Assembly: GCA_030698385.1 (NCBI GenBank) | Contig: JAUYLZ010000033.1 | Location: 9,905 to 73,904 of the forward strand | DNA length: 64,000 nt | Reading direction: 5' to 3' | Source of the DNA: a bacterium | Lineage (GTDB): Bacteria > Patescibacteriota > Patescibacteriia > Patescibacteriales > XYC2-FULL-47-12 | In this document: positions 5,055 through 50,546 of the stretch, piece after piece | Layout of the letters: each line of letters opens with the position of its first letter | Numbering within the stretch: the stretch's first letter is position 1 | Translations under genes and position numbers: made by a program | The notes under the pieces: generated by a model | The model's database searches: none | What the model was told of the DNA's origin: nothing | The model's input: only the letters and a program-made list of their open reading frames with translations

Positions 5055-5190
5055 AAAAATCTCCGATAAAAACCGCAGATATTAGGATAATTAATTCTGA
5101 AATTTGCAATTTGCATTCAAAAATTAATACTTTTCCTCGACGAGATGTTTAACGCGAATTGCGCCTCGTTGTCTGCGGCTTGCCCCGTAA
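5055..5190 (-). promoter_or_regulatory. possible rplJ (L10) leader structure
   Basis: GC-enriched island inside an AT-rich ~400 bp 5' UTR. Outer inverted repeat ccgcaga/tctgcgg encloses inner hairpins (cgacgag...ctcgttg). Its position matches known L10 autoregulatory leaders. Confidence 0.25.
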
Positions 5191-5378: not shown

Positions 5379-6026
5379 TTATTTTTCTTCATGTATTTTA
5401 GTAAATATTAAGTTACCGTTCCAGGAATTATTTATTAACTTTTTACCAACCCACACTTTATTCTTCTTGTAGCCTGGCCAATAATCAGGATCATTAATTA
5501 ATAAACCAGACACTTCACAATTATTATCAGTTTTATAGCCAAAACACACAACCAGGTGGCCACCTTTCTTTTTTACTTTACCATTTTCGTCAAAATTACC
5601 ACCGCCTAGCCCAGTAGTAACTGATAATATCAATATATAACCATCTTTTATTAATCGCGCTAAACTTTCAAGTGATTTCATTTTTTTTCGAAAAGATTTA
5701 ATATTATAACTCTTTAGTATCCTAACCATAGAATCATGAATCCACCCTCGCTCCTTATCATAAGCATTAATTTGCTGACCTAATCTTATAATATCGCCAA
5801 ATTTAATATGTTTTTCTTCTATGGCATGAATAACCATTTCTAAGCAAGCCGCACCACACCCCTCTTCTCTCCAATACTTTGCTTCCGCTAAATTGAGTAT
5901 TCCCCGCTCTAAATAATTTGATTCTGTAATATCTTGATCATGAAAAAAATCTTTCTCAATAACAATATATTTTTCATTCGAAAATAATTTTTTTTTCTTA
6001 ATTAATTTTTCTAATTTAAATAACAT
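5379..6026 (-). CDS. peptidase C39-like (papain-fold cysteine peptidase) domain protein, standalone
   Basis: 215 aa. CGAACLEMV matches the C39 catalytic Cys motif (CGxAcLxM). GHLVVCFGY...LINDP matches the C39 His/Asp region (HyvVl...i.DP). No transporter domain and no signal peptide. Confidence 0.6.
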   Translation of the reverse strand: MLFKLEKLIKKKKLFSNEKYIVIEKDFFHDQDITESNYLERGILNLAEAKYWREEGCGAACLEMVIHAIEEKHIKFGDIIRLGQQINAYDKERGWIHDSMVRILKSYNIKSFRKKMKSLESLARLIKDGYILILSVTTGLGGGNFDENGKVKKKGGHLVVCFGYKTDNNCEVSGLLINDPDYWPGYKKNKVWVGKKLINNSWNGNLIFTKIHEEK

Positions 6027-6112: not shown

Positions 6113-6817
6113 TTAATAAGTACTGCTAATTACCGTACCATTGCACTTATTATTTTTAAATAAATTATCCAGATTCCCCAACTTTTTCCCATTCATTATC
6201 ACAACTTTTAGTTTCAACTTTTCAGCCAATTTTGAAGCAATCGGATCAAAAGGCTTGCTCATGCCCGGCGTCCACTTATCCCCCACTATTTTTCTAAAAT
6301 CAGGCCAGTTAATTTTTTCAATTTTTTTCGCATCTTTAAACTTCTTGGGGTCTTTAGTATAAACATAATCAATATTGGATAAATTTATTACTTTATTAAC
6401 GCCATAAGCATCCGCCAACCTCACTGCCACATAATCGGTTGACCAGCCCGGTTTCCAGCCGCCAGCCACAATAATTTTTTCCTTAAACTTAATTTTTTTG
6501 TCAGCATGCCTGATAATTTCCGGGTGCGACCAGTCATAAAAAATCGTACGTACCAAATGCGCGTTCAGGCGTGAAGAATGAATCCCCAGCCAGTCGCGGT
6601 CCTCGCTTTTGATAGCTAGCACTTTTTGCGCCGCTTGCGCGTACTGGCGCGCGGTTACCCCGCCGCCGGCAACAATAATAAACTTCTTGCCTTTTTTTAT
6701 CTGTTTGACAATGGTTGCTCTGAATTTTTTTAAATATTGCCAGTCGATTCCTGAGTGAGGCACAATGAGCGAACCGCCCAATGAAACTACATACATTTGA
6801 CTATTAACATTTGACAT
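6113..6817 (-). CDS. pyrH: amino-acid-kinase family protein, UMP kinase-like (archaeal-type PyrH)
   Basis: 234 aa. VVSLGGSLI ... FIIVAGGGVTARQY matches UMPK/amino acid kinase N-terminal and glycine-loop motifs. Length fits the short archaeal-type UMPK. Confidence 0.6.
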   Translation of the reverse strand: MSNVNSQMYVVSLGGSLIVPHSGIDWQYLKKFRATIVKQIKKGKKFIIVAGGGVTARQYAQAAQKVLAIKSEDRDWLGIHSSRLNAHLVRTIFYDWSHPEIIRHADKKIKFKEKIIVAGGWKPGWSTDYVAVRLADAYGVNKVINLSNIDYVYTKDPKKFKDAKKIEKINWPDFRKIVGDKWTPGMSKPFDPIASKLAEKLKLKVVIMNGKKLGNLDNLFKNNKCNGTVISSTY

Positions 6818-7247
6818 TTAACTATAATTTATTATTTAAAAGTTTTTTTCTAAATGCTGTAAGTTGATTACCTAGTGCTTCAGCTTTTAATAGAAAGTCG
6901 TTATGAGTATTTAGAGAGATATATTTGCTATCAAGAGCGATATCTAAACATGCTACTACTTCATTTAATGATGTATGCGCTAAATTAAGAAAATGAGCAA
7001 AGTCCTTATCAGTTCCTCTATCAGAACCTTCTGCAATATTTAATATTATTGAATACAATGCTCTCCACATCTGCGAAGATAAGCAATACTTTTCATTAGA
7101 TGGAAAATCTTGATAGATTATTAATTTAACTTCACAACAAAACATTCTCGCATCTTTATAAACTTGAAAATTTCTAAATCGAAATTTTTTTATAAACACA
7201 GAGCTAGTCATAAAAAAAGTTAAATGTTAATAGTCAATAGTCAATTG
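6794..7247 (-). mobile_element. TIR-bounded mini-cassette A carrying a four-helix-bundle gene (IVS-like element)
   Basis: ~29-bp imperfect inverted repeats (24/29 match): catttgactattaacatttgacatttaac (6794-6822) versus the reverse complement of gttaaatgttaatagtcaatagtcaattg (7219-7247). They abut the ORF on both sides. The element sits exactly between the mltG stop (7249) and the pyrH-like start (6817, inside the left repeat). Confidence 0.4.
6822..7211 (-). CDS. four helix bundle protein (TIGR02436-like; '23S rRNA intervening sequence protein' family)
   Basis: 129 aa, helical, with the family hallmark AEG motif (NIAEGSDRGTDKDFAHFLNLAHTSLNEV). Confidence 0.75.
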   Translation of the reverse strand: MTSSVFIKKFRFRNFQVYKDARMFCCEVKLIIYQDFPSNEKYCLSSQMWRALYSIILNIAEGSDRGTDKDFAHFLNLAHTSLNEVVACLDIALDSKYISLNTHNDFLLKAEALGNQLTAFRKKLLNNKL

Positions 7248-7248
7248 T

Positions 7249-8295
7249 TCAACGAAGGTAAAGCGCTTTGTTTTTATTATGTTCATCAAGCGTCTCGGCA
7301 AAATATGACTGTCCGGTCTCTAAATTATTAAGAAAGTATAGATAATTAGTGTCATCAGGATAAATAGCCGCGGTAATCGCGTTCAAACCCGGGTTGGAAA
7401 TTGGCGCCGGCGGCAAACCGCGATATTTATAAGTATTAAACGGCGTATCAGTTTCTAACTCTGCCAAGTTATGCGCCGGCTTTTTGTCCTTTAAATAATA
7501 ACTAAGTGTAGCGTCCGACTGCAAAGCCATGTCAATTCCCAAACGATTCCAAAAAATTCCTGAGACCACTTTCATGTCTTCAGCGCTACGCACCTCACGT
7601 TCTATGATTGAAGCCATGGTGATAATTTCATAAACTGATTTATTTTGTTTGGCGATATCTTCGCGCATTTGTGGAGTTAATTTTTTGGAAAAATTATTCA
7701 ACATCTTTGCGATAATATCACCTGCGTTCGCGTCTTTAAAAACTCTATAAGTATCCGGAAATAAGAATCCTTCTAAAGTAGTCTCTACAGCTCCACCGGG
7801 CGCTTCTTTTAAAAAAGTATAAACATCAGCTGATTCTGTATCCACGCAGTCATTATATTTCGGGCAGTTAACCAGCTTAGAAAAAAGCGCACCTGAAGCA
7901 ATATTATTCGTTTCCAAATAATCGGCAATATCGCTCGCGCGCCAGCCTTCAATTATTTTTACTATCTTTTCATTGCTTAATGCCTCGCCACGCACCAATG
8001 TTTTGGAAATTTCAGCAATTGTCATTTTTTTGTCCAAAACATAATCACCGGCCTGAATATTTGCGCCCCAATTTTTTAACCAAATATACATTTCAAAATT
8101 AAATTTGCTGGCGATTAAATTCTGATCCGCCAAATTTTGTCCAACCACACTGACCCCTTGACCCGGATCAATAGTAAATAAAACTTCTTGAGAGACACTC
8201 TGAACAGATCCGTTAAACGAACTAAAAAAATAAACCATGACAATAACAATAGCAGTAATAGCAACCACGACCGCGATGTAAATTTTTTTTAACAT
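7249..8295 (-). CDS. mltG: endolytic murein transglycosylase MltG (YceG-like)
   Basis: 348 aa. N-terminal TM helix, then YceG-like domain (FTIDPGQGVSVVGQNLADQNLI...; C-terminal ...GQSYFAETLDEHNKNKALY). Confidence 0.85.
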   Translation of the reverse strand: MLKKIYIAVVVAITAIVIVMVYFFSSFNGSVQSVSQEVLFTIDPGQGVSVVGQNLADQNLIASKFNFEMYIWLKNWGANIQAGDYVLDKKMTIAEISKTLVRGEALSNEKIVKIIEGWRASDIADYLETNNIASGALFSKLVNCPKYNDCVDTESADVYTFLKEAPGGAVETTLEGFLFPDTYRVFKDANAGDIIAKMLNNFSKKLTPQMREDIAKQNKSVYEIITMASIIEREVRSAEDMKVVSGIFWNRLGIDMALQSDATLSYYLKDKKPAHNLAELETDTPFNTYKYRGLPPAPISNPGLNAITAAIYPDDTNYLYFLNNLETGQSYFAETLDEHNKNKALYLR

Positions 8296-13312: not shown

Positions 13313-14899
13313 TTATTTTTTTAATAATGATTTACCAGTCATTTCCGAAGGTTTTTTCATATTCATCAACTGAAGTATGGTGGGGGCAACATCGCCAAGT
13401 ATTCCTTGTTTGCTTAAAACAAATTTTTTTCCTTTTAAATCGCTGTCGTAGAGGATAAATGGTACCGGCATAATTGAGTGTTGAGTGTCAATTTCACCTG
13501 TTTTTTGATTTAACAATCCTTCAGCATTGCCGTGATCAGCCGTAATAATAACGCGATAGTCAGCGCCGGCTTGTGCAATGATTTTACCAATACATAAATC
13601 CGTGATCTCACAGGCCTTAATGGTTGCTTTTAGATTTCCAGTGTGAGCAATCATATCGGGAGCGGCAAAATTAAGCGCGGCAAAATCAAATGACTTTTTT
13701 TTCATCATCTTAATAATCGTACTCGCGACTTTGAATGAACTCATCGCCGGCGCTTCTTCATAATTCTTTTTGTCCGGCGAATTTATGATGACGCGCTTTT
13801 CGCCAGCTACTGTGTCAGCGTAACCACCATTGAGAAAATACGTTACGTGCGCGTATTTCTCGGTCTCGGCTATATACCATTGGCGTAAGTCACGAAACTG
13901 CATAGGTAGTGTTTCTTTAACATCAATACTCGGATAGGCGGTAAAAATACTATCCAAATCCGGCCCAAAATCAGTCATCGCGACATAATTAAGATTATTA
14001 ATGACATTCTTGCGGTGAAATGAACCCGGATTCATTTTTTCAAAATCTTTTTGCACAAACGCCTTAGTAATTTGCCGAGCGCGGTCTGATCTTAGGTTAA
14101 AAAATATTACCGAATCATTATCTTGGATATGAGTTAAACGCTTGCCTTTTTCAAATATCACATAAGGCTCCATAAATTCATCGGTGTTGTTGTGATTGTA
14201 ACTCTGGGTAATAGCGTCAACAACTGACTCAGCTTTGTGCCAAGTGCATTGATCACAGGTCAAAACATCATAAGCCTGTTCGGTTATTGGCCAATTTTTC
14301 TTTCTGTCCATTGCATAATACCGGCCCATGACAGTCGCTATTTTCACGTTTGAACCCAAATAAGGTGTCAGGTCTTTGATTAATTTAAGAGCGGCATGTT
14401 GCGGTGAATCACGGCCATCAGTGAATAAATGTAAATAAACATTTTTTAAATTATTCATTCTAGTCATCTCCAGCAGAGCTTTTAGATGGTCAGGATCGCT
14501 GTGAGCGCTCATTCCGTTTGATAACAGCCCCATGATGTGCAGAGTTGACTTATTTTTTTTGACATGTCTAATTGACTGTAAAAAGGCGGGATTTTTAAAA
14601 AAAGTCCCATCCTTAATGGTCTTCGTTATTCTAATCGTATCCTGATCAACCACGCGGCCGGCGCCAATATTCATGTGGCCTGCTTCTGAATTCCCTTCTT
14701 GCAGATCTGTCAATCCCACGCATTTACCATGCGCGCATAGTTGCGCGTTAGGGTATTCCTTCTGCAAACCGTCCATAACTGGCGTATTAGCCAGCGCAAT
14801 CGCATTGCCTTCGCTAGGCGGCGCAATCCCCCAGCCGTCAATAATTACCAAAACAAGCGGTTTTGTTGTAAACTCTTTTTTTGTTTTTTTTGTGGGCAT
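13313..14899 (-). CDS. gpmI: 2,3-bisphosphoglycerate-independent phosphoglycerate mutase, divergent tandem paralog
   Basis: 528 aa. LVIIDGWGIAP ... EGNSEAGHMNIGAGR ... ADHGNAE. Roughly 40% identical to its neighbour. Confidence 0.85.
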   Translation of the reverse strand: MPTKKTKKEFTTKPLVLVIIDGWGIAPPSEGNAIALANTPVMDGLQKEYPNAQLCAHGKCVGLTDLQEGNSEAGHMNIGAGRVVDQDTIRITKTIKDGTFFKNPAFLQSIRHVKKNKSTLHIMGLLSNGMSAHSDPDHLKALLEMTRMNNLKNVYLHLFTDGRDSPQHAALKLIKDLTPYLGSNVKIATVMGRYYAMDRKKNWPITEQAYDVLTCDQCTWHKAESVVDAITQSYNHNNTDEFMEPYVIFEKGKRLTHIQDNDSVIFFNLRSDRARQITKAFVQKDFEKMNPGSFHRKNVINNLNYVAMTDFGPDLDSIFTAYPSIDVKETLPMQFRDLRQWYIAETEKYAHVTYFLNGGYADTVAGEKRVIINSPDKKNYEEAPAMSSFKVASTIIKMMKKKSFDFAALNFAAPDMIAHTGNLKATIKACEITDLCIGKIIAQAGADYRVIITADHGNAEGLLNQKTGEIDTQHSIMPVPFILYDSDLKGKKFVLSKQGILGDVAPTILQLMNMKKPSEMTGKSLLKK

Positions 14900-14915
14900 A
14901 ACTATTATTGTTACT

Positions 14916-15349: not shown

Positions 15350-15514
15350 ATCTACGGCAATCGCTTCTTGTTCTCCACCTGCTGCAAATAGTTGCCCTTC
15401 GTTGAGACTTTCTTGTCGCTCTTTTTCTCCAAATCAGCCCGTGCCCAGCCGTCAATAATTACCAAAACAAGCGGTTTTGTTGTAAACTCTTTTTTTGGTT
15501 TTTTGGTGGTCATA
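15350..15514 (-). pseudogene. 5' remnant of an iPGM gene (first ~23 codons)
   Basis: 15444-15513 is ~90% identical to 14830-14899 (the start of the 13313..14899 iPGM gene). It encodes MTTKKPKKEFTTKPLVLVIIDGW, then diverges and stops after ~54 codons. Confidence 0.55.
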
Positions 15515-15521
15515 AGTATAT

Positions 15522-36497: not shown

Positions 36498-36568
36498 GCG
36501 AGATTAGTACAGTGGTAGTATATCGGCTTCCCAAGCCGAGGACGCCAGTTCGATCCTGGTATCTCGCT
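36498..36568 (+). tRNA. tRNA-Gly (anticodon CCC)
   Basis: Hand-folded cloverleaf: acceptor GCGAGAT/ATCTCGC, D-arm GTAC-AGTGGTA-GTAT, anticodon arm TCGGC-TTCCCAA-GCCGA, T-arm GCCAG-TTCGATC-CTGGT, discriminator T. No encoded CCA. Confidence 0.75.
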
Positions 36569-36699
36569 CAGTCCGGCGATGGCGGGCAGGCAAGGTTGAG
36601 GCACGAGTCCGATTCCCGTTACCCGCTCTGGTAATTTCAGATTTCAAATTTCAGAATGAAAAATATGTTATTTTGAAATTTGAAATTTACGTTTAAAAC

Positions 36700-36775
36700 G
36701 CCGAAATAGCTCAGCTGGTAGAGCAATGCTTTCGTAAAGCAGAGGTCGGGAGTTCGAATCTCCCTTTCGGCTCCA
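36700..36775 (+). tRNA. tRNA-Thr (anticodon CGU)
   Basis: Acceptor GCCGAAA/TTTCGGC, D-arm GCTC-AGCTGGTA-GAGC, anticodon loop TTCGTAA, T-arm GGGAG-TTCGAAT-CTCCC, CCA encoded. Confidence 0.85.
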
Positions 36776-38552: not shown

Positions 38553-38576
38553 AAACTATTTTTTAACTATAGACAT

Positions 38577-38743
38577 CACATTCCAAGAATTGATTTAGAA
38601 CGCCGGAAAAATTGTGGTAGGCGCAGTTTTGGAGCGTAGAAAATTTTGAGCCGTAGTCCCGCGTCTGCGGGATGAAAAATTTTCTAGCGAAAAACAAGCC
38701 AGCCGCGATTTTAACAAGTTATTGAGTCCATTCTTGGAATGTG
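38577..38743. repeat. ORF-less nested inverted-repeat element (long imperfect rod-like hairpin)
   Basis: Outer 14-bp perfect inverted repeat cacattccaagaat (38577-38590) / attcttggaatgtg (38730-38743). Inner 11-bp inverted repeat tagaaaatttt/aaaattttcta. Central cccgc-gtct-gcggg hairpin. Confidence 0.45.
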
Positions 38744-38752
38744 AGGTCTATA

Positions 38753-39238
38753 CTATGATTCATTATTTTTTTCCCCAAAAAAATACTGCCACCACTGCCG
38801 CGGATTTGACAACTCTGCCTTGGGCAATTCTTTATCCAAACCATCAATTACATAAATTGACTTATTTTCTTCATTAGTTCTTTCTGCCAGTTCATCTTTT
38901 ATGACAACGACACTTTCCCCCGGCTTTTTCAAGTCTAAATTAAGCCTGGCTTGTGACTCAATAAAACCTTCACTGCCCAGATAATCGATAATATTTTCAA
39001 GTTCTTTATTTTTTTTGCTCAATTTATCCGACTCTTCTTGCAGCTGTGCTATTTCCTGATTCAGTAAATACCGTTGCTTTACCTTCTTTGCCAATGGATA
39101 ACCAATTAAAATAACCAAAATAAGCCCAATCACTGGGAATAATTTTGATTTGGAAAAAAATGATTTGATTGGATTTTCCTCTCTAACGATGCGTGATCTC
39201 ATGGGTTCATTATACAAAAAAACGGCGGTATTTACCAC
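38753..39238 (-). CDS. ftsB: FtsB/DivIC-like septum formation initiator
   Basis: 161 aa. Single TM, then coiled coil LLNQEIAQLQEESDKLSKKNKELENIIDYL and ESQARLNLDLKKPGE motif of the FtsB/DivIC family. Confidence 0.6.
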   Translation of the reverse strand: MVNTAVFLYNEPMRSRIVREENPIKSFFSKSKLFPVIGLILVILIGYPLAKKVKQRYLLNQEIAQLQEESDKLSKKNKELENIIDYLGSEGFIESQARLNLDLKKPGESVVVIKDELAERTNEENKSIYVIDGLDKELPKAELSNPRQWWQYFFGEKNNES

Positions 39239-39683: not shown

Positions 39684-39700
39684 TGTGTTGTATTAATAAT

Positions 39701-40230
39701 TCAAATCTACAAAATAATGCAAATCTACAAATTTATGCAAATATTGCAAAAAATAATTTATGCAAATTACGCCTTTTTATAGTATAAACCGTTTAGAATC
39801 CTCTTAGGAACTAAACGCGGTTGCCTAAAATTTACTAAAATTCCTAAATGTAAATTTAAAGTTACTAAATATCTCTTTACCTGATAATAATCTTCTTTAG
39901 TTAAGGAATCTCTGGCTTTGAATTCAACTATTATCTTATTTTCAATTATAAAATCTACTATACACCTAACATCTCCTTTCCCATATTGATGGTCGTTGAA
40001 GCGATATTCTCTGATATACTTAAATTTCTTTTGTTGCAATAGCTTTTCAAAATAATCTCCGTATTGTTTTTCGTTACGAAAGCGACCTAAATCCTTATGC
40101 GCCTTAAAGAATAAACCAACTATTTCATAAGATAATTCTTTGTGTATGCATTTATCTTCTGCCATAATATAATTTGCATATGAAATTTTGTAGTATTTGC
40201 ATGTTAATTTGTAGTATTTGCATTATATTT
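39701..40230 (-). mobile_element. TIR-bounded mini-cassette B carrying a GxxExxY gene
   Basis: Left flank 39701-39776 and the reverse complement of right flank 40171-40230 share ~60 bp of imperfect inverted repeats. These are built from atgcaaat and ctacaaa units (each side has ttgtagtatttgcat / atgcaaatctacaaa twice). The right repeat overlaps the last ~9 codons of recJ. Confidence 0.35.
39767..40165 (-). CDS. GxxExxY protein (TIGR04256-like, PD-(D/E)XK fold)
   Basis: 132 aa. LSYEIVGLFFKAHKDLGRFRNEKQYGDYF ... GDVRCIVDFIIENKIIVEFKA ... YQVKRYLVTLNLHLGILVNFRQPRL matches the GxxExxY family consensus. Confidence 0.75.
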   Translation of the reverse strand: MAEDKCIHKELSYEIVGLFFKAHKDLGRFRNEKQYGDYFEKLLQQKKFKYIREYRFNDHQYGKGDVRCIVDFIIENKIIVEFKARDSLTKEDYYQVKRYLVTLNLHLGILVNFRQPRLVPKRILNGLYYKKA

Positions 40231-42511: not shown

Positions 42512-42535
42512 AAATTATCTGCCAAAATTTAGCTT

Positions 42536-42573
42536 AAAGCCCTCTGCAAATTTAATGAGGGCTTTTTATTTTT
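42536..42573 (+). terminator. intrinsic terminator
   Basis: aaagccctc-tgcaaatttaat-gagggcttt followed by ttatttttaa. Confidence 0.6.
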
Positions 42574-42574
42574 A

Positions 42575-42674
42575 ATACAATAACATTGGCAAAACGGTAA
42601 AAGCAAGCATTGCCAAAATCATAATAATCATAACCGCACGAGTTATTATTTTTTTAATAGTTTTCTTCTTCATA
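42575..42674 (-). CDS. possible small hydrophobic peptide (33 aa)
   Basis: MKKKTIKKIITRAVMIIMILAMLAFTVLPMLLY. Starts where the murJ start codon would lie relative to the duplicated cassette flank. No RBS check possible, could be spurious. Confidence 0.2.
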
Positions 42675-42894
42675 TAATCCTACTAATTACGAATTAACTA
42701 CAAATTTACCAATCGCTTCTACTGAAGCTTTGATAAATTTACTAAACGCATAAATTTTACTCCATTAGATCTAATTATATATGGCGCTTGTCTTTTAAAT
42801 ATTAATTCTTTTATTTTAAAATTATTAGCGACAGCTCTTTCGTAATATTTCTCTTGGAATTATTAGTATATTCTAAATAATTAGTAATTAGTAG
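42670..42894 (-). pseudogene. decayed copy of the GxxExxY cassette (two internal deletions), TIRs intact
   Basis: 42670-42760 is ~97% identical to 47765-47849 and 42762-42856 is ~93% identical to 48015-48110. Terminal repeats ctactaattacgaatt (42670-42685) and aattagtaattagtag (42879-42894) are preserved. ~165 bp and ~105 bp of the ORF are missing. Confidence 0.6.
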
Positions 42895-42910: not shown

Positions 42911-44695
42911 CTATCGTTTAAGTACGCTTAAGAAGGCCTCGGGAGGAATCTCCACGCCGCCCTTGCCCAAAGAGGCCATCTTCTTTTTGCCTTTCTTTTG
43001 TTTTTCCAATAACTTACGCTTGCGCGAAACATCGCCGCCGTAAAGTTTGGCGGTAACGTCTTTGCGCAAAGCCGAAATACGTTCCGCCGCGATGATTGAC
43101 CCGCCGATAGCGGCCTGGATTTTGAGCATGAACTGCTGGCGCGGCAAGGTATTTTTCAATGAATTAACAATTTCTTTGCCGCGCTTTTGCGCTTCGTCTT
43201 TGTAAACAATTGTGGACAGCGCCTCAACCGCTTCTTCAGCGACTAAAATATCCATCCGCACAACTTCGGCCGCGCGATAATCCAGATACTCATAATTAAT
43301 CGAGGCGTAACCGCTAGTCGCGCTTTTTATTTTATCGTAAAAATCAGTTAAAATTGTAGACATTGGCATTTCGTAATGCAGAACTGCCCGGTCATCATCA
43401 ATATATTCGGTCGTTCTATAAATGCCTCTTTTTTCTTGGACTAAATTCATAATTGAACCCATGTAGATCTTTGGCGTTATCACATCAAGCGTTACCCACG
43501 GCTCCTTAATCTCGGCAATCTGCGATGGATCAGGCAGGTCATAAGCCGAACGAATAATGGAATCTTTGCCGTCAGTTTTTTTTAACTGATAAGCAACCGA
43601 AGGAGTGGTTACAATTAATTCAAGATCAAATTCTCGGTGCAGACGCTCCTGAAAAATTTCCAAATGCAAAAGCCCCAAAAAACCGCAACGAAAGCCAAAA
43701 CCAAGCGCTTGCGACTGCTCGGGCTCATATATCAAAGCTGAATCAGTCAATTTCAGCTTGCCAATCGCCTCGCGCAGATCATCATACTCATTCCCTTCTT
43801 TGGCAAAAACTCCGGCAAAAACCATTGGCTTCACTACCTTGTAACCGGGCAGAGCTTTTACTTCTCCGGCCGCGGAAGTTTTCTTGGTAATAGTGTCGCC
43901 AACCTTGCACTCCTCAACCGACTTGAGTCCAGTAACGATATAGCCGATTTCTCCGGTGTCTAAACTTCCGGTCGAAAAATAGTCCGGCTTGAAAAATCCG
44001 ACATCCAAAGCCTCGCTTTCAGCCTCCGTTTCAATTAACTTTATTTTATCGCCTTTTTTGATACTGCCATCAACAACGCGCGCATAAGCAACAACCCCTT
44101 TGTACTCATCATAAACCGAATCAAAAATCATGGCGCGCAAGTTATTTTCTTTTTCCCCTCTCGGCGGCTGGACGCGATCAATGACTGCCTGCAAAATTTG
44201 TTCCACTCCCGCTCCGGTTTTTCCGGAGGCTTCAATAACGTCTTCAGCTTTGCAGCCGATCAACTTCACGATACTTGCTTTGGTGCCGCTGACATCTGCC
44301 GCTGGCAGATCAATTTTGTTCACCACCGGAATTATTTCCAAATTCTGTTCAAGCGCCAAATATAAGTTTGCCAAAGTCTGCGCCTGAATGCCTTGCGTTG
44401 AGTCAACTAACAAAATCGCCCCTTCAACAGCGGCGAGCGAACGTGATACTTCATAGGAAAAATCAACATGTCCGGGCGTGTCAATTAAATTCAAATGATA
44501 ACCCAAATAATTCATATTTACCGGCGCGAGCTTAATCGTAATGCCCCGCTCCCGTTCCAGCTCCATTTTGTCCAAAAATTGAGCTTTCATATTTCGTTTG
44601 TCAACGGTGTGGGTAATTTCAAGCATGCGGTCAGCGAGCGTTGACTTACCGTGGTCGATATGAGCGATAATACAGAAATTACGAATGTTGTTCAT
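42911..44695 (-). CDS. lepA: translation elongation factor 4 (LepA)
   Basis: 594 aa. NFCIIAHIDHGKSTLADR G1 motif, DTPGHVDF, NKIDL, and the LepA-specific C-terminal domain. Confidence 0.95.
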   Translation of the reverse strand: MNNIRNFCIIAHIDHGKSTLADRMLEITHTVDKRNMKAQFLDKMELERERGITIKLAPVNMNYLGYHLNLIDTPGHVDFSYEVSRSLAAVEGAILLVDSTQGIQAQTLANLYLALEQNLEIIPVVNKIDLPAADVSGTKASIVKLIGCKAEDVIEASGKTGAGVEQILQAVIDRVQPPRGEKENNLRAMIFDSVYDEYKGVVAYARVVDGSIKKGDKIKLIETEAESEALDVGFFKPDYFSTGSLDTGEIGYIVTGLKSVEECKVGDTITKKTSAAGEVKALPGYKVVKPMVFAGVFAKEGNEYDDLREAIGKLKLTDSALIYEPEQSQALGFGFRCGFLGLLHLEIFQERLHREFDLELIVTTPSVAYQLKKTDGKDSIIRSAYDLPDPSQIAEIKEPWVTLDVITPKIYMGSIMNLVQEKRGIYRTTEYIDDDRAVLHYEMPMSTILTDFYDKIKSATSGYASINYEYLDYRAAEVVRMDILVAEEAVEALSTIVYKDEAQKRGKEIVNSLKNTLPRQQFMLKIQAAIGGSIIAAERISALRKDVTAKLYGGDVSRKRKLLEKQKKGKKKMASLGKGGVEIPPEAFLSVLKR

Positions 44696-46087: not shown

Positions 46088-47758
46088 CTAAATTCCTCTC
46101 GCTTCGCTGACATCGTCTGTTTCAATTTTTTCACGCTTAAACTTTGAACGAATGCTACGGATGAAATTCAATAATTCTTCAGACTTTAACAGCCAGCAAA
46201 CTATTATAAAAATTATTATGCCAAAACTACCGGCTAAAAATCCTTGCGTCAACACACCCCAGAACTTCGTCATATTAACCAATGGTTCAATTAAAAACTT
46301 AACCGCTTGAATGCTAATGCCGGCGGCAATGCTGGCCAAAGAAATTTTTAATGTTGACATCAGAATGCGCACTTCATCAAGATTGCCAAACTCTGCCTTG
46401 AGCAATATCCACAACAAAGCGAAATTTATAATCATACTGATAGAAAATGCCAGCGCCAAACCGGCAACGCCCAGAGGCTGACAGATATTTGCCGCTCCGC
46501 AAGCTATGATGCTTGGTAAATACAAACTTAAACCCAAATTAACCACTACCGCGAATAGCCCGACATAAAAAGGCGTTTTGCTGTTTTTTTGCACATAAAA
46601 CATACGAACAAGCAATGGAATAATTGCCTGCGCGAACAGACTTAAGCAAAAATAAGTCAAGGTATTAATTGTCAAAATCGTATCCTGCCAGTCAAACGCG
46701 CCCGCGCCAAGAATGACACGAATGATTTGCGCGCGCAAAGTCAGTATCAAAACCGTAGCTGGTAAAATGAAAAAAATGATTTGACGCAATACTTTGGAAA
46801 AATTCTTAATCAGCACGCCCCGGTCATCAGCCAAAGCCGACAAAGTTGGAAAAGCGGCAATCGCGAACGAGATGCCGAAGATGCCGACCGGAAATGATTG
46901 TAAATTATTAGCGAAATTAAATACTGCCAAACTGCCGGCCGCCAGTGTTGAAGCAATTATAGTTATCACAACTAAATTAACCTGCATCACCGCCAGACTC
47001 AACGTGCGCGGAACCATCATTATGGCAATCTGACGAATATACTTATTGCGCCAATTAAAAACCGGCTGCCAGCGCCAGCCCAATGAAAAAACGGTCGGCA
47101 CTTGAATCAGTAAATGCATCAGCGCGCCAAAAACAACTCCGTAAGCCAAACCATACACTCCCCAAATCGGCGTAAAGTATAGAGCGCCAATGATAATCCC
47201 TATGTTGTAAATAATCGGCGCCAGCGAATACACGAAGAATCGCTTAAAAGACTGCAACACTCCGCCAAAGACCGAACTTAAGCCCAGAAACAGCGGCGAC
47301 AAAAACATTATCCGAGTCAGGTTCACGGTGATCAATTGAGCATCAGCGTCAAACCCCGGCGCCAACAATTTCGTAAGTGGTTCGGCAAATATTACCAAAA
47401 CCAGTGACGTAACAATTAATAAACTGCCAAGAATGTTTAAAGCAATGTTGGCCACTAGCCAGGCTTCGTTATTTTCTTTGTCAGTAATTTTTTTAATTAT
47501 TGACCGGTGATTAATCAAAGCCGCAAAAACCGGAATGAATCCGGCTGAAAGCGCGCCCAATACCAAAAGATTATAAATAAGATCCGGAACGCGAAAGGCC
47601 GCGTAGTACATATCAAGAGTCGAACCGGCGCCGAATTCGGAGGCCAAAATTCTATCGCGAAATATACCTAAAAAACGGCTGGCTAGCGATGCCGCCGCGA
47701 CAATAACCGCCGCAACCGTTATAGAGTTTATTTTTGAAGTAAATAACTTGCTTATCAT
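46088..47758 (-). CDS. murJ: lipid II flippase MurJ (MviN)
   Basis: 556 aa, 14 TM. N-terminal SRFLGIFRDRILASEFGAGSTLDMYYAAFRVPDLIYNLL MurJ motif. Confidence 0.85.
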   Translation of the reverse strand: MISKLFTSKINSITVAAVIVAAASLASRFLGIFRDRILASEFGAGSTLDMYYAAFRVPDLIYNLLVLGALSAGFIPVFAALINHRSIIKKITDKENNEAWLVANIALNILGSLLIVTSLVLVIFAEPLTKLLAPGFDADAQLITVNLTRIMFLSPLFLGLSSVFGGVLQSFKRFFVYSLAPIIYNIGIIIGALYFTPIWGVYGLAYGVVFGALMHLLIQVPTVFSLGWRWQPVFNWRNKYIRQIAIMMVPRTLSLAVMQVNLVVITIIASTLAAGSLAVFNFANNLQSFPVGIFGISFAIAAFPTLSALADDRGVLIKNFSKVLRQIIFFILPATVLILTLRAQIIRVILGAGAFDWQDTILTINTLTYFCLSLFAQAIIPLLVRMFYVQKNSKTPFYVGLFAVVVNLGLSLYLPSIIACGAANICQPLGVAGLALAFSISMIINFALLWILLKAEFGNLDEVRILMSTLKISLASIAAGISIQAVKFLIEPLVNMTKFWGVLTQGFLAGSFGIIIFIIVCWLLKSEELLNFIRSIRSKFKREKIETDDVSEARGI

Positions 47759-47764
47759 CTAATC

Positions 47765-48252
47765 CTACTAATTACGAATTAACTACAAATTTACCAATCG
47801 CTTCTACAGAAACTTTGATAAATTTACTAAACGCATAAATTTTACTCCATGTGGCGTAAAGTTTGCTAAAATAGCAAGCTTTAAATTAGTGGCCTTAAGA
47901 TACGCATTTACCTGATCTATGTTTTGCTTATTGAAGTAATTACCTTTTTTTAGTTCAAGTATCACCTTGCCGGCAACCAAAAAATCAAGATAATACCTGC
48001 CAATAATTTTACCATTAGATCTGATTATGTATGGTACTTGTCTTTTAAATATTAATTCTTTTACTTTAAAATTATTAGCGACAGCTCTTTCGTAATATTT
48101 CTCTTGGTATCCATATCCCAATTCGTTAAAGACAGAATATAATACGCCAACAATTTTATAACTCAAATCTGGATAGACCAAATCCTCCCTAATAACTCGA
48201 CGAGAATACATAGATAGTTATTAGTATATTCGAAATAATTAGTAATTAGTAG
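47765..48252 (-). mobile_element. TIR-bounded mini-cassette D carrying an intact GxxExxY gene
   Basis: 16-bp terminal inverted repeats ctactaattacgaatt (47765-47780) and aattagtaattagtag (48237-48252; 15/16 match). The right repeat abuts the rseP stop codon (48253) and the left repeat starts 6 bp after the murJ start codon (47758). Confidence 0.45.
47804..48211 (-). CDS. GxxExxY protein (TIGR04256-like, PD-(D/E)XK fold)
   Basis: 135 aa. LSYKIVGVLYSVFNELGYGYQEKYYE ... GRYYLDFLVAGKVILELKK ... VNAYLKATNLKLAILANF family consensus. Confidence 0.8.
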   Translation of the reverse strand: MYSRRVIREDLVYPDLSYKIVGVLYSVFNELGYGYQEKYYERAVANNFKVKELIFKRQVPYIIRSNGKIIGRYYLDFLVAGKVILELKKGNYFNKQNIDQVNAYLKATNLKLAILANFTPHGVKFMRLVNLSKFL

Positions 48253-49422
48253 TTAGCTGAAGAACTTAGTAATGTCGCGATAAGTAACTAAAATGACGAG
48301 AAATATGAGCAAGGCAAAACCGGCGTTATGAATAAAAGCTTCGACTTTTTCCGGCACGGCCCGGCCCCGAATTTTTTCAATGATTAAAAATAAAACCCGC
48401 CCGCCGTCCAAAGCCGGAAACGGCAAATAGTTTAGTATTGCCAAGTTGACAGATAATATCGCCGTGAACTGCAATAAATAGACAAATCCCAACTGAGCCA
48501 TCTGACCAGTAATGGTTGCAATGCCGACCGGTCCGGACAAACTCTGGCTAACCCCGACGCCGGTAAAAATATCTCTAAACAACCCATAAAAAGCGGCGAT
48601 GATAAACCAGATCAAAAATACCGTGGATTTAATTCCCTCCCAAATCGCTCGGTACCAAGGAAAACTTACTAAACCGGTCTCCGCGATGGCAACGCCAATG
48701 CCAACCTCATCGCTCTCTCCCAAAACCTTGGGTGTTATCGCCAAATCAAACTCTTCACGGCCGCGTCTTAATTGATAATCAAGCTCTTGCCCCGCCTTGT
48801 CAGCTAAAAAAGCCTGTAACTGTGTATAGTTGCTAAACTGCTGGTTATTAATGCTCAAAATCACATCGCCAAACTGAACGCCAGCATTGGCCGCGGCTGA
48901 ATCTGGCAGTACCTGCATTATCTGAATGTTACGATCGCGCACTATCGCGGCCGGACTGACGCCATCCAAGTCCTGAGGCAGTCCCAACATATAACCAAGT
49001 GAAATAAAGAGAGCGGCAATGATTATATTCATAGTTACTCCGGCTGACAAAATAATACAGCGCTTCCAGATTTTTTGGTGACCAAAGCTATCGGTTTCGT
49101 CTTTGCTGTCTCCTTGTTCTCCTTTTATTTTTACAAAACCGCCCAATGGCAGCCAATTTATGGAATACACCGTGCCGTCAGCGTCATCAACTTCTCTGCT
49201 GCCCCAAACCACCTTCCACTTTCTTGATTTCTTTGGCGCCTCACTTTCATCAGCGCCGGCTTTATTAATCGGACGATAAATACCAATCGCGCGCGGCGGA
49301 AAGCCCCAGCCAAACTCCGGACAACTAACGCCGAATTTTCGCGCGGTCCAAAAATGGCCTATTTCATGAGCGAAGACAAGAATGGATAAAATTACGATAA
49401 ATATAATAATAGTGGTAAACAT
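48253..49422 (-). CDS. rseP: RIP metalloprotease RseP (site-2 protease, M50) with PDZ domain
   Basis: 389 aa. HEIGHFWTARKFGV HExxH in TM1, PDZ (AANAGVQFGDVILSINNQQF), LDG motif ALDGGR. Confidence 0.85.
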   Translation of the reverse strand: MFTTIIIFIVILSILVFAHEIGHFWTARKFGVSCPEFGWGFPPRAIGIYRPINKAGADESEAPKKSRKWKVVWGSREVDDADGTVYSINWLPLGGFVKIKGEQGDSKDETDSFGHQKIWKRCIILSAGVTMNIIIAALFISLGYMLGLPQDLDGVSPAAIVRDRNIQIMQVLPDSAAANAGVQFGDVILSINNQQFSNYTQLQAFLADKAGQELDYQLRRGREEFDLAITPKVLGESDEVGIGVAIAETGLVSFPWYRAIWEGIKSTVFLIWFIIAAFYGLFRDIFTGVGVSQSLSGPVGIATITGQMAQLGFVYLLQFTAILSVNLAILNYLPFPALDGGRVLFLIIEKIRGRAVPEKVEAFIHNAGFALLIFLVILVTYRDITKFFS

Positions 49423-50454: not shown

Positions 50455-50546
50455 CAAATGAACACTTCAAATCCATTCCAAAACACCGGAATGGATTTTT
50501 TTATACATTAGTAAATCTGCATTCTGAAATTTACAATCTAAAATCA

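Follow-up and report, generated by a model that had tools for sequence, protein, structure and literature searches.

The question raised by the 64,000-nt stretch of contig JAUYLZ010000033.1 analyzed here (the window, which is the part of the genome covered by this work) is how a 217-nt non-coding segment downstream of lepA, referred to as remnant B, came to carry the ends and scraps of the open reading frame (ORF) of a complete cassette, cassette A, situated 5 kb away between rseP and murJ and encoding a protein of the GxxExxY family. In our judgment remnant B (42678-42894) is probably a non-autonomous, internally deleted derivative of a selfish cassette of ~0.5 kb, of which A is the intact copy. 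The parts of both copies, with the arms named in gene orientation, are:

42678-42894, minus strand: remnant B, a 217-nt non-coding deleted copy between the lepA stop codon (42911-42913) and the ATG (42673) of an ORF of 33 aa
42680-42713, minus strand: 3' arm of B, reading on the plus strand CTACTAAT TACGAAT TAAC TACAAAT T TACCAAT, with four TACNAAT units, the same as the arm of A
42719-42765, minus strand: 3'-end relic of the B ORF, with the stop codon (42719-42721) and the last ~14 codons (VKFMRLVNLSKLQ plus stop)
42762-42859, minus strand: relic in B of ORF codons ~35-67 (QEKYYERAV...RSNG), 91% identical to A at the amino acid level
42860-42894, minus strand: 5' arm of B, reading on the minus strand CTACTAAT TACTAAT TATTTAGAATA TACTAAT, with one difference from A (42874, T vs G)
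47763-48252, minus strand: cassette A, complete at 490 nt, between the rseP stop codon (48253-48255) and the murJ ATG (47758)
47804-48211, minus strand: GxxExxY gene of A, 135 aa, predicted PD-(D/E)XK nuclease with RecB-type motifs E37, D76, E86-x-K88, and Q100xxxY104
47765-47798, minus strand: 3' arm of A, with four TACNAAT units on the plus strand
48218-48252, minus strand: 5' arm of A, with three TACNAAT units and one degenerate unit, read on the minus strand

Remnant B aligns with cassette A in three collinear blocks of 94-97% identity. In the repeat search block 1 pairs 42670-42765 with 47755-47850 (96 nt, 97%), block 2 pairs 42762-42860 with 48012-48110 (99 nt, 94%), and block 3 pairs 42860-42894 with 48218-48252 (35 nt, 97%). 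A first-pass annotation of the window had described a shortened second copy of the cassette after lepA, and this is what we find, in the region that it named, although its coordinates were off by a few bases. Because blastn with the low-complexity filter switched off gives E-values of 3e-42, 1e-40, and 3e-11 for the three blocks, the similarity between A and B is not a chance effect of AT-rich DNA, nor is it confined to low-complexity AT sequence, which was the doubt attached to the original description.

Cassette A exceeds remnant B by 273 nt, divided over two deletions (165 + 108 nt) and close to the ~270 bp of ORF sequence that had been estimated as lost by two deletions. Deletion 1 removed 165 nt, corresponding to 55 codons (residues 68-122 of the GxxExxY ORF), and is flanked by the imperfect direct repeats ATTTTACTCCAT and ATTTTAC-CAT (ATTTTAC(T)CCAT), with its junction in B located inside the CCAT at 42762-42765. 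Deletion 2 removed 108 nt comprising the ATG, codons 1-34, and ~6 nt of the leader, with its junction at ~42857-42860. What B keeps of the ORF is residues 35-67 and the last ~14 codons (about residues 121-134), which read in frame as QEKYYERAVANNFKIKELIFKRQAPYIIRSNG followed by VKFMRLVNLSKLQ and the stop codon. It has lost the start codon, no other start is usable, and the catalytic residues D76, E86, and K88 are gone, so that the relic is, judging by its sequence, a pseudogene fragment of the GxxExxY family. The microhomology at deletion 1 is equally compatible with an aborted copy and with later slippage, and what looks like decay in B may partly date from the copying itself.

The claim that both 16-bp terminal repeats are intact in B held up, since CTACTAATTAC[G/T]AATTA is the same in A and B; in B the inverted repeat reaches out to TCC...GGA. 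The flanks of A and B are unrelated, and the edges of similarity are sharp at the arm tips. Within A, the likeness of the 5' arm to the 3' arm is limited to the outer 16-17 nt and is lost toward the interior, and B has both of these distinct arms to the last base together with 6 nt past the 3' arm. As A and B have complete and internally differing arms in common, the whole unit was copied, and not the ORF alone.

What was originally taken for simple terminal inverted repeats (TIRs) in A and B are ordered inverted arrays with 3-4 units of the heptamer TACNAAT, and both elements carry the tips CTACTAATTAC...GTAATTAGTAG at their two ends. The 11-mer CTACTAATTAC at the arm tip occurs exactly 4 times in 64 kb, at the ends of the two elements and nowhere else; even with one mismatch allowed the expectation is ~1 match, and the observed count was reached in 0 of 100 shuffles. 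Likewise, arrays of at least three TACNAAT units are found 4 times in the window, at the A and B ends only, where 0.02 are expected. Two other candidate arrays were rejected, 5094-5119 as part of the L10 leader and 50520-50546 as a single weak match.

The generality of this architecture was examined in 80 GxxExxY loci fetched from other genomes, mostly of the Candidate Phyla Radiation (CPR) and selected for carrying the gene (individual comparison loci are given L numbers below). Of the 74 loci whose flanks are complete, 61% have a flanking inverted repeat that exceeds the 95th percentile for permuted pairs of flanks. A motif scan returned 51 convergent array pairs, of which 44 enclose a GxxExxY ORF of ~125-135 aa in sense and 7 are without ORF, and in all 44 filled pairs TACNAAT lies upstream and ATTNGTA downstream on the sense strand. 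The inner distance is 372-632 nt in the filled pairs vs -2 to 50 nt in the ORF-less pairs, with none intermediate in 560 kb, and B with its inner distance of 148 nt is therefore a rare intermediate. The units are spaced by 7-11 nt (mode 8), and in 47% of the arms the outermost unit is preceded by C. It is clear that the two arms are ordered mirror copies of each other, as the spacers between units are identical in 33% of cases in register vs 5% out of register (p = 6e-13). The proteins most similar to that of A (69% amino acid identity) are encoded at an unrelated locus, between a hypothetical gene and DUF5663 near ftsK, and their cassettes end in the same outer termini as A and B (CTACTAATTAC / ATTCGTAATTAGTAG). 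The same heptamer (TACGAAT) flanks GxxExxY genes in metagenome-assembled genomes (MAGs) of Scalindua and of a member of the Bacteroidota (L056, L064), and this conservation across phyla points to recognition by a protein rather than mere pairing.

A scan of metagenomes for the 22-nt arm gave one match, at a contig end: a Joint Genome Institute (JGI) metagenome contig (L086) ends within a TACNAAT array (2840-2886) having the same arm tip CCCTACTAATTACGAATTAACTACGAAT, which suggests that heptamer arrays can break short-read assemblies.

The gene order of the window on the minus strand is rseP, cassette A, murJ, msrB, two small ORFs, lepA, remnant B, the 33-aa ORF, and a terminator, with recJ, a third GxxExxY cassette, and rnhA further along. 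The window comes from a MAG, on a contig of 126 kb with the GenBank proteins MDP3900314.1 and MDP3900309.1. Its LepA protein is 79-82% identical to LepA of Falkowbacteria-like CPR genomes, and the order RRF-rseP-murJ-...-lepA-small ORF-...-recJ-rnhA-divIC is retained in five related assemblies (LepA identities to the window 82% for L087/L093, 80% for L089, 80% for L091, and 77% for L095). The operon in the closest relative, L087/L093, reads RRF-rseP-murJ-lepA-33-aa ORF-recJ-rnhA. The three junctions that hold GxxExxY cassettes in the window compare as follows:

rseP/murJ: cassette A in the window; empty with 19 nt in L087/L093; empty with 4 nt in L095; an ORF-less palindrome in both L089 and L091
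lepA/small ORF: remnant B in the window; empty with 9 nt (TAAcacataactATG) in L087/L093; empty with 28 nt in L095; 125 nt with a different inverted-repeat element in L089; two other genes in L091
recJ/rnhA: cassette 3 in the window; empty with overlapping genes in L087/L093; an orthologous GxxExxY cassette in L095; a lone array of ATTCGT units in L089; empty with overlapping genes in L091

Since all three junctions are empty in syntenic relatives, all three GxxExxY cassettes of the window are insertions; in L087 no TACNAAT array was found over 15.8 kb. ORF-less palindromes are also present at the small ORF/recJ junction in L089 and L091, and the L089 palindrome carries the same termini as A and B (CCTACTAATTAC...GTAATTAGTAG). 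Gene junctions are thus sites of cassette gain and loss, and what persists there may be a full element, a partly deleted one, or one lacking the ORF. The first-pass annotation had proposed a mobile or homing element that spread and then decayed: mobility and decay are supported by the empty sites, whereas classical homing is not, given the unrelated flanks and the copying of the whole unit.

The cassettes also obey a rule of site and orientation. Where both neighboring genes could be called, 43 of 47 cassettes were co-oriented with both and 0 of 47 antisense to both, and the outer unit lies at a median of ~5 nt past the upstream stop codon and ~6-7 nt ahead of the downstream start codon. All four cassettes of the window follow this rule. 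The tip of the 3' arm (TAGGA, 6 nt before the downstream ATG) was considered as a Shine-Dalgarno sequence and rejected, as a motif of this kind is found for 5 of the 47 long ORFs of the window and at none of the empty junctions of the relatives. The lineage apparently initiates translation largely without Shine-Dalgarno pairing, the 5 of 47 being counted upstream of the first ATG. The GC skew of the window is negative nearly throughout, and most long ORFs are on the minus strand.

The protein encoded by A matches TIGR04256 "GxxExxY protein" with 94.6 bits (cut-off 35) and PF13366 PDDEXK_3 with 94.1 bits. In an alignment of 33 homologues, residues E37, Y40, D76, E86, K88, Q100, and Y104 are invariant, and the resulting pattern E...D...ExK...QxxxY is the mark of RecB-family nucleases. 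With this catalytic core (E ... D ... ExK) in place, the product is a predicted RecB/Cas4-like PD-(D/E)XK nuclease, for which a search of the PDB by sequence returned no relative and an exact-match protein look-up no record. It is the only ORF of cassette A, which lacks a recognized transposase (DDE, HUH, serine or tyrosine recombinase), and searches for Rfam families, promoters, and terminators in the cassettes gave none. No phage carrying the GxxExxY gene was found by tblastn, and the four plasmid matches to the protein are distant (30-34% identity). In Treponema saccharophilum pTS1 such a distant gene is flanked by a single inverted repeat of 11-12 bp, CACGGATTCG / CGAATCCGTG (L096, 1450-1475 / 1895-1920), and in a Fusobacteria plasmid by a 22-nt direct repeat, CAGATTTAATCCGTGTACCTAT (L097, 1450-1480 / 1905-1935). 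These copies are possible experimental entry points in cultured bacteria.

Both the protein and the arms are under purifying selection. In the orthologous cassettes L081 and L085 the ORF has diverged with a nonsynonymous rate (dN) of 0.07 and a synonymous rate (dS) of 0.52, giving a dN/dS of 0.13, and arms plus leaders are ~97% identical by manual count from the alignments; it is this low ratio, together with arms far more conserved than the synonymous sites, that reveals the selection. At the 5' boundary of the L085 cassette (5890-5960) a 20-nt segment over the upstream stop codon and the arm tip (TTCGTGTAATTACTACTAAT) is tandemly triplicated, and it is single copy in L081. In RNA folds of A and B the termini pair in both the minimum free energy (MFE) and the centroid structure (z = -4.1 for B and -2.7 for A), so that the two elements have complementary, stem-forming termini with tandem heptamers around a small sense ORF, as do the intervening sequences (IVSs) of rRNA.

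From these observations we would picture the cassette as a 5' arm of 3-5 TACNAAT units, a PD-(D/E)XK gene of ~130 aa (GxxExxY), and a 3' arm mirroring the first as an ordered inverted copy, the whole moving as one unit from arm tip to arm tip. Because it lands in the few bases that separate one gene's stop codon from the following start codon, and has the orientation of the operon, it would be transcribed by read-through. The nuclease may act on the heptamer arms as DNA to mobilize the unit, in which case B would be mobile only with protein supplied by A; this step we put forward tentatively, as possible rather than probable. In the transcript the paired arms could form a stem that lets the cassette sit harmlessly between cistrons, by analogy with the IVSs of 23S rRNA. 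Remnant B would be the outcome of a copying event that was aborted or of slippage that took place later at the short direct repeats.

Several points weigh against B being the derivative of a mobile cassette. Movement was not observed, two copies are visible in 64 kb, and the source is a MAG. Among 57 cassettes, A and B are the only extended near-identical pair within one genome, and activity must therefore be rare or old. No target-site duplication was found, as the flanks GCTAA/.../GATTAG of A and CTCTAAC/.../TTATATG of B hold no direct repeat, and comparison with the empty site TAAcacataactATG suggests that any such duplication would be at most 1-2 nt. No other transposase adjoins the cassettes, their neighbors being housekeeping genes, and to our knowledge no strand-transfer activity has been described for a 135-aa nuclease. 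The genes of the related loci were called with a simple ORF heuristic, and the orientation rule could result from selection or replication-strand bias rather than from the mechanism of insertion. The mismatches between arms are without a bias tolerant of G:U pairs (56 sense vs 52 antisense), and pairing in the RNA is thus not demonstrably selected. Finally, the differences between A and B come to 7 in the 139 nt of ORF relics and 2 in the 80 nt of non-coding ends, one of the 2 falling outside the element; the contrast is in the expected direction and not significant (Fisher p = 0.26), and the conserved ends of B could have been kept for function, and not be due to youth alone.

The last point leads to the alternative that B is retained for its paired ends, its stem in the lepA-small ORF transcript being an RNase III processing site or an RNA-stabilizing site and the ORF dispensable, which would be compatible with a mobile origin. 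The terminal stem of B in both folds, with its low z, and the lower divergence of ends than of ORF relics speak for this account, and the strong conservation of the arms between L081 and L085 fits as well. The ORF-less palindromes at small ORF/recJ in L089 and L091 have diverged in sequence and kept their complementarity (84% and 97%), and in Coxiella the IVS stem with its tandem heptamers is cut by RNase III, the RNA being thought more important than the ORF (PMC4990558). Yet a stem needs no fixed heptamer, and TACGAAT is conserved as far as Scalindua and Bacteroidota; the arms lack a wobble-tolerant mismatch pattern, nothing matches Rfam, and the closest relatives do without any element at lepA/small ORF. 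We therefore regard a hairpin kept for its function as a possible but rather improbable explanation of B.

A second alternative reverses the order of events: the nuclease would cut a resident empty palindrome, repair from a filled copy via arm homology would copy the ORF in, and B would be the product of an incomplete repair. The gap in inner distance between ORF-less pairs (7, with loops of -2 to 50 nt) and filled pairs (44) is well accommodated by such homing, as are the ORF-less palindromes that L089 and L091 carry at rseP/murJ where the window has A. At L034 an arm of an ORF-less palindrome is 95% identical over 41 nt to the filled cassette 0.7 kb away, and the microhomology at deletion 1 would fit aborted repair synthesis. 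This sequence of events is nevertheless unlikely for B, as A and B have in common both complete, internally different arms and the 6 nt beyond the 3' arm, so that a whole unit was copied, and neither L087/L093 nor L095 has a palindrome at lepA/small ORF that could have received the ORF.

It is very improbable that B stems from events requiring no mobility of the element itself, namely a segmental duplication of the ordinary kind or an ectopic gene conversion between two intergenic regions; A and B are just 5 kb apart on the same strand, which would favor such an event, but the similarity is bounded by the arm tips with unrelated flanks, dozens of unrelated junctions, largely from CPR genomes, have this architecture too, and relatives have empty sites. 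An assembly artefact, that is a collapsed or chimeric repeat in the MAG, is hardly credible, for even though metagenome assemblies break at such arrays, as L086 does, B is, besides its two clean deletions, distinguished from A at 9 positions, and its flanks (lepA, 33-aa ORF, recJ) match the gene order of five related assemblies, which a mis-join would not.

A mobile cassette with B as its deleted derivative remains our preferred reading, and it places B among other features of the window that deserve description:

42911-44695, minus strand: lepA (EF4; TIGR01393, 876 bits), upstream neighbor of B
42572-42673, minus strand: 33-aa hydrophobic ORF (MKKKTIKKIITRAVMIIMILAMLAFTVLPMLLY; MKKKTIKK...), downstream neighbor of B and downstream edge of the insertion site
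39690-40228, minus strand: third GxxExxY cassette, with a gene (39767-40165) for a protein of 132 aa, 30% identical to that of A, between recJ and rnhA
6793-7248, minus strand: PF05635 cassette (23S rRNA-IVS protein, four-helix bundle), with the gene at 6822-7211 and inverted TTGACTA/TTAACAT arrays

The 33-aa ORF appears unannotated and is followed by a terminator hairpin (~42533-42566). Its homologues are found after lepA or before recJ in L087, L089, L091, L094, and L095, and because of this conservation in five relatives it is probably a real small membrane protein.

The arms of the third cassette are inverted arrays of TGCAAAT/CTACAAA units, and its 5' arm overlaps the last codons and the stop codon of recJ. 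Its L095 orthologue at the same recJ/rnhA junction (L095 10990-11500, 66% amino acid identity) has TTCAAAT units on both arms, from which it follows that the two arms change together. The PF05635 cassette has the architecture of the GxxExxY cassettes with another cargo and lies between mltG/yceG (7249-8295) and a pyrH-like kinase gene; in L081 the YceG and AA_kinase genes are only 5 nt apart. Another PF05635 cassette is present in L081 and missing from the syntenic L085.

Other kinds of repeats were seen at gene junctions. An ORF-less element of 185 nt (38568-38752) with terminal inverted repeats of ~25 nt (TATAGACCTCACATTCCAAGAAT...), unrelated to the heptamer arrays, lies directly after a divIC-like gene (38753-39238) and just ahead of the next start codon, and it may be another kind of junction-dwelling element. 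Between the tRNA genes 36498-36568 and 36700-36772 there is a hairpin of ATTTCAR heptamers (36634-36695, three units per arm, 11-nt loop), which resembles either a processing stem or a heptamer palindrome without ORF that belongs to another family. In L089 (3990-4010, 8800-8900, and 11564-11786) a small GC-rich palindrome, CTGCCTACCGGCAGGCAGG, is nested inside a heptamer array, and separate inverted-repeat elements, TTGTCATCTCGACG...CGTTTCGAAATGACAA, occupy the lepA/small ORF and rnhA/divIC junctions, so that further kinds of junction elements seem to exist. Elsewhere in the window, a 76-nt direct repeat of 95% identity (14830-14905 / 15444-15519, copies 614 nt apart) is probably the common end of tandem paralogous genes.

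In the open-access literature we found neither a description of such an element nor a paper on the GxxExxY family itself, and PF13366 is given as "unknown" in a survey of PD-(D/E)XK proteins; the cassette architecture is apparently widespread and undescribed. GxxExxY (PF13366/TIGR04256) and the four-helix bundle (PF05635) are large, widespread families without known function, and this locus shows jointly that their genes are the cargo of heptamer-bounded cassettes, that these turn over at the junctions of a conserved operon, and that they leave deleted and ORF-less palindromic relics. For the annotation of streamlined CPR genomes this would mean that many short "hypothetical" genes and intergenic hairpins are parasites or their remains, and MAG assemblies may break where heptamer arrays occur, as in the L086 contig.

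Among known systems, free-standing homing endonuclease genes, of which I-Ssp6803I is a PD-(D/E)XK example, resemble the cassettes in being small nuclease genes that are present or absent at a fixed junction among relatives with a selfish distribution. The cassettes differ in having their own inverted ends, and because the flanks of A (rseP/murJ) are unrelated to those of B (lepA/33-aa ORF), the spread to B was not homology-driven homing. The short tandemly repeated repetitive (STRR) sequences of cyanobacteria are another set of intergenic heptamer repeats. Similarly, TAACTGA heptamers form intergenic direct repeats in Beggiatoaceae, cyanobacteria, and Bacteroidetes (PMC4679880). Like the cassette arms, both consist of tandem 7-nt units which, in intercistronic spacers, end a few nt ahead of the start codon, show variation in multiples of 7 nt, and are suspected of mobility; they are direct arrays with no associated gene described, whereas the cassettes are ordered inverted pairs around a nuclease gene.

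A REPtron in the RAYT-REPIN system (PMC3733652) is likewise a single small gene between inverted short repeats, with ORF-less inverted doublets elsewhere that lie mostly between co-directional genes, and many cassette units read (C)TAC, which is GTAG on the other strand. The differences are in the enzyme, a PF13366 RecB-like PD-(D/E)XK protein and not HUH/Y1, in AT-rich heptamer arrays vs GC-rich hairpins, and in the low copy number. B also resembles miniature inverted-repeat transposable elements (MITEs) and the deletion derivatives of Ds and P elements, as it keeps the ends and has lost the interior with microhomology at a junction, at a locus other than that of the intact copy. As for a TIR transposon, occupied sites contrast with empty orthologous ones (L087/L093 and L095 at the lepA and rseP junctions, L087/L093 and L091 at recJ/rnhA). 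The cassettes differ by the lack of target-site duplications and of a DDE or other known transposase, by heptamer-array ends vs simple TIRs, and by the small number of copies seen, two within the 64-kb window that are 94-97% identical.

The closest described system is the IVS of 23S rRNA with an S23p/PF05635 ORF, known from Coxiella burnetii and Leptospira (PMC4990558). The Coxiella IVS measures 428 nt and has one S23p (PF05635) ORF, a terminal stem of 28 bp that is cleaved by RNase III, and three copies of the heptamer GACAGAT just upstream of the ORF, which is decaying, and transposition has been proposed as its origin (PMC4990558). A and B differ from it in lying at the stop-start junctions of protein genes instead of an rRNA helix (the window holds no rRNA), in encoding a PD-(D/E)XK nuclease instead of a four-helix bundle, and in showing no sign of selection at the RNA level in the wobble test, where the IVS is cut by RNase III. 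The likeness extends to a unit of ~0.4-0.5 kb with one small sense ORF, heptamers, and stem-forming terminal inverted repeats, to a suspected mobile origin, to a decay-prone ORF between persisting ends, and to the PF05635 gene of the window (6822-7211), which has the exact cassette architecture. It is conceivable, although we hold it to be doubtful, that GxxExxY and PF05635 cassettes make up a previously unrecognized class of very small autonomous mobile elements (~0.45-0.55 kb, with heptamer-array ends and sense insertion at stop-start junctions), and that the 23S rRNA IVSs and the large "GxxExxY" and "four helix bundle" paralogue families of CPR, Bacteroidota, cyanobacteria, and others are products of the same mechanism. 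The locus offers a specific hypothesis, open to testing, on the origin of the rRNA IVSs, which has long been in question, and on the role of their ORFs.

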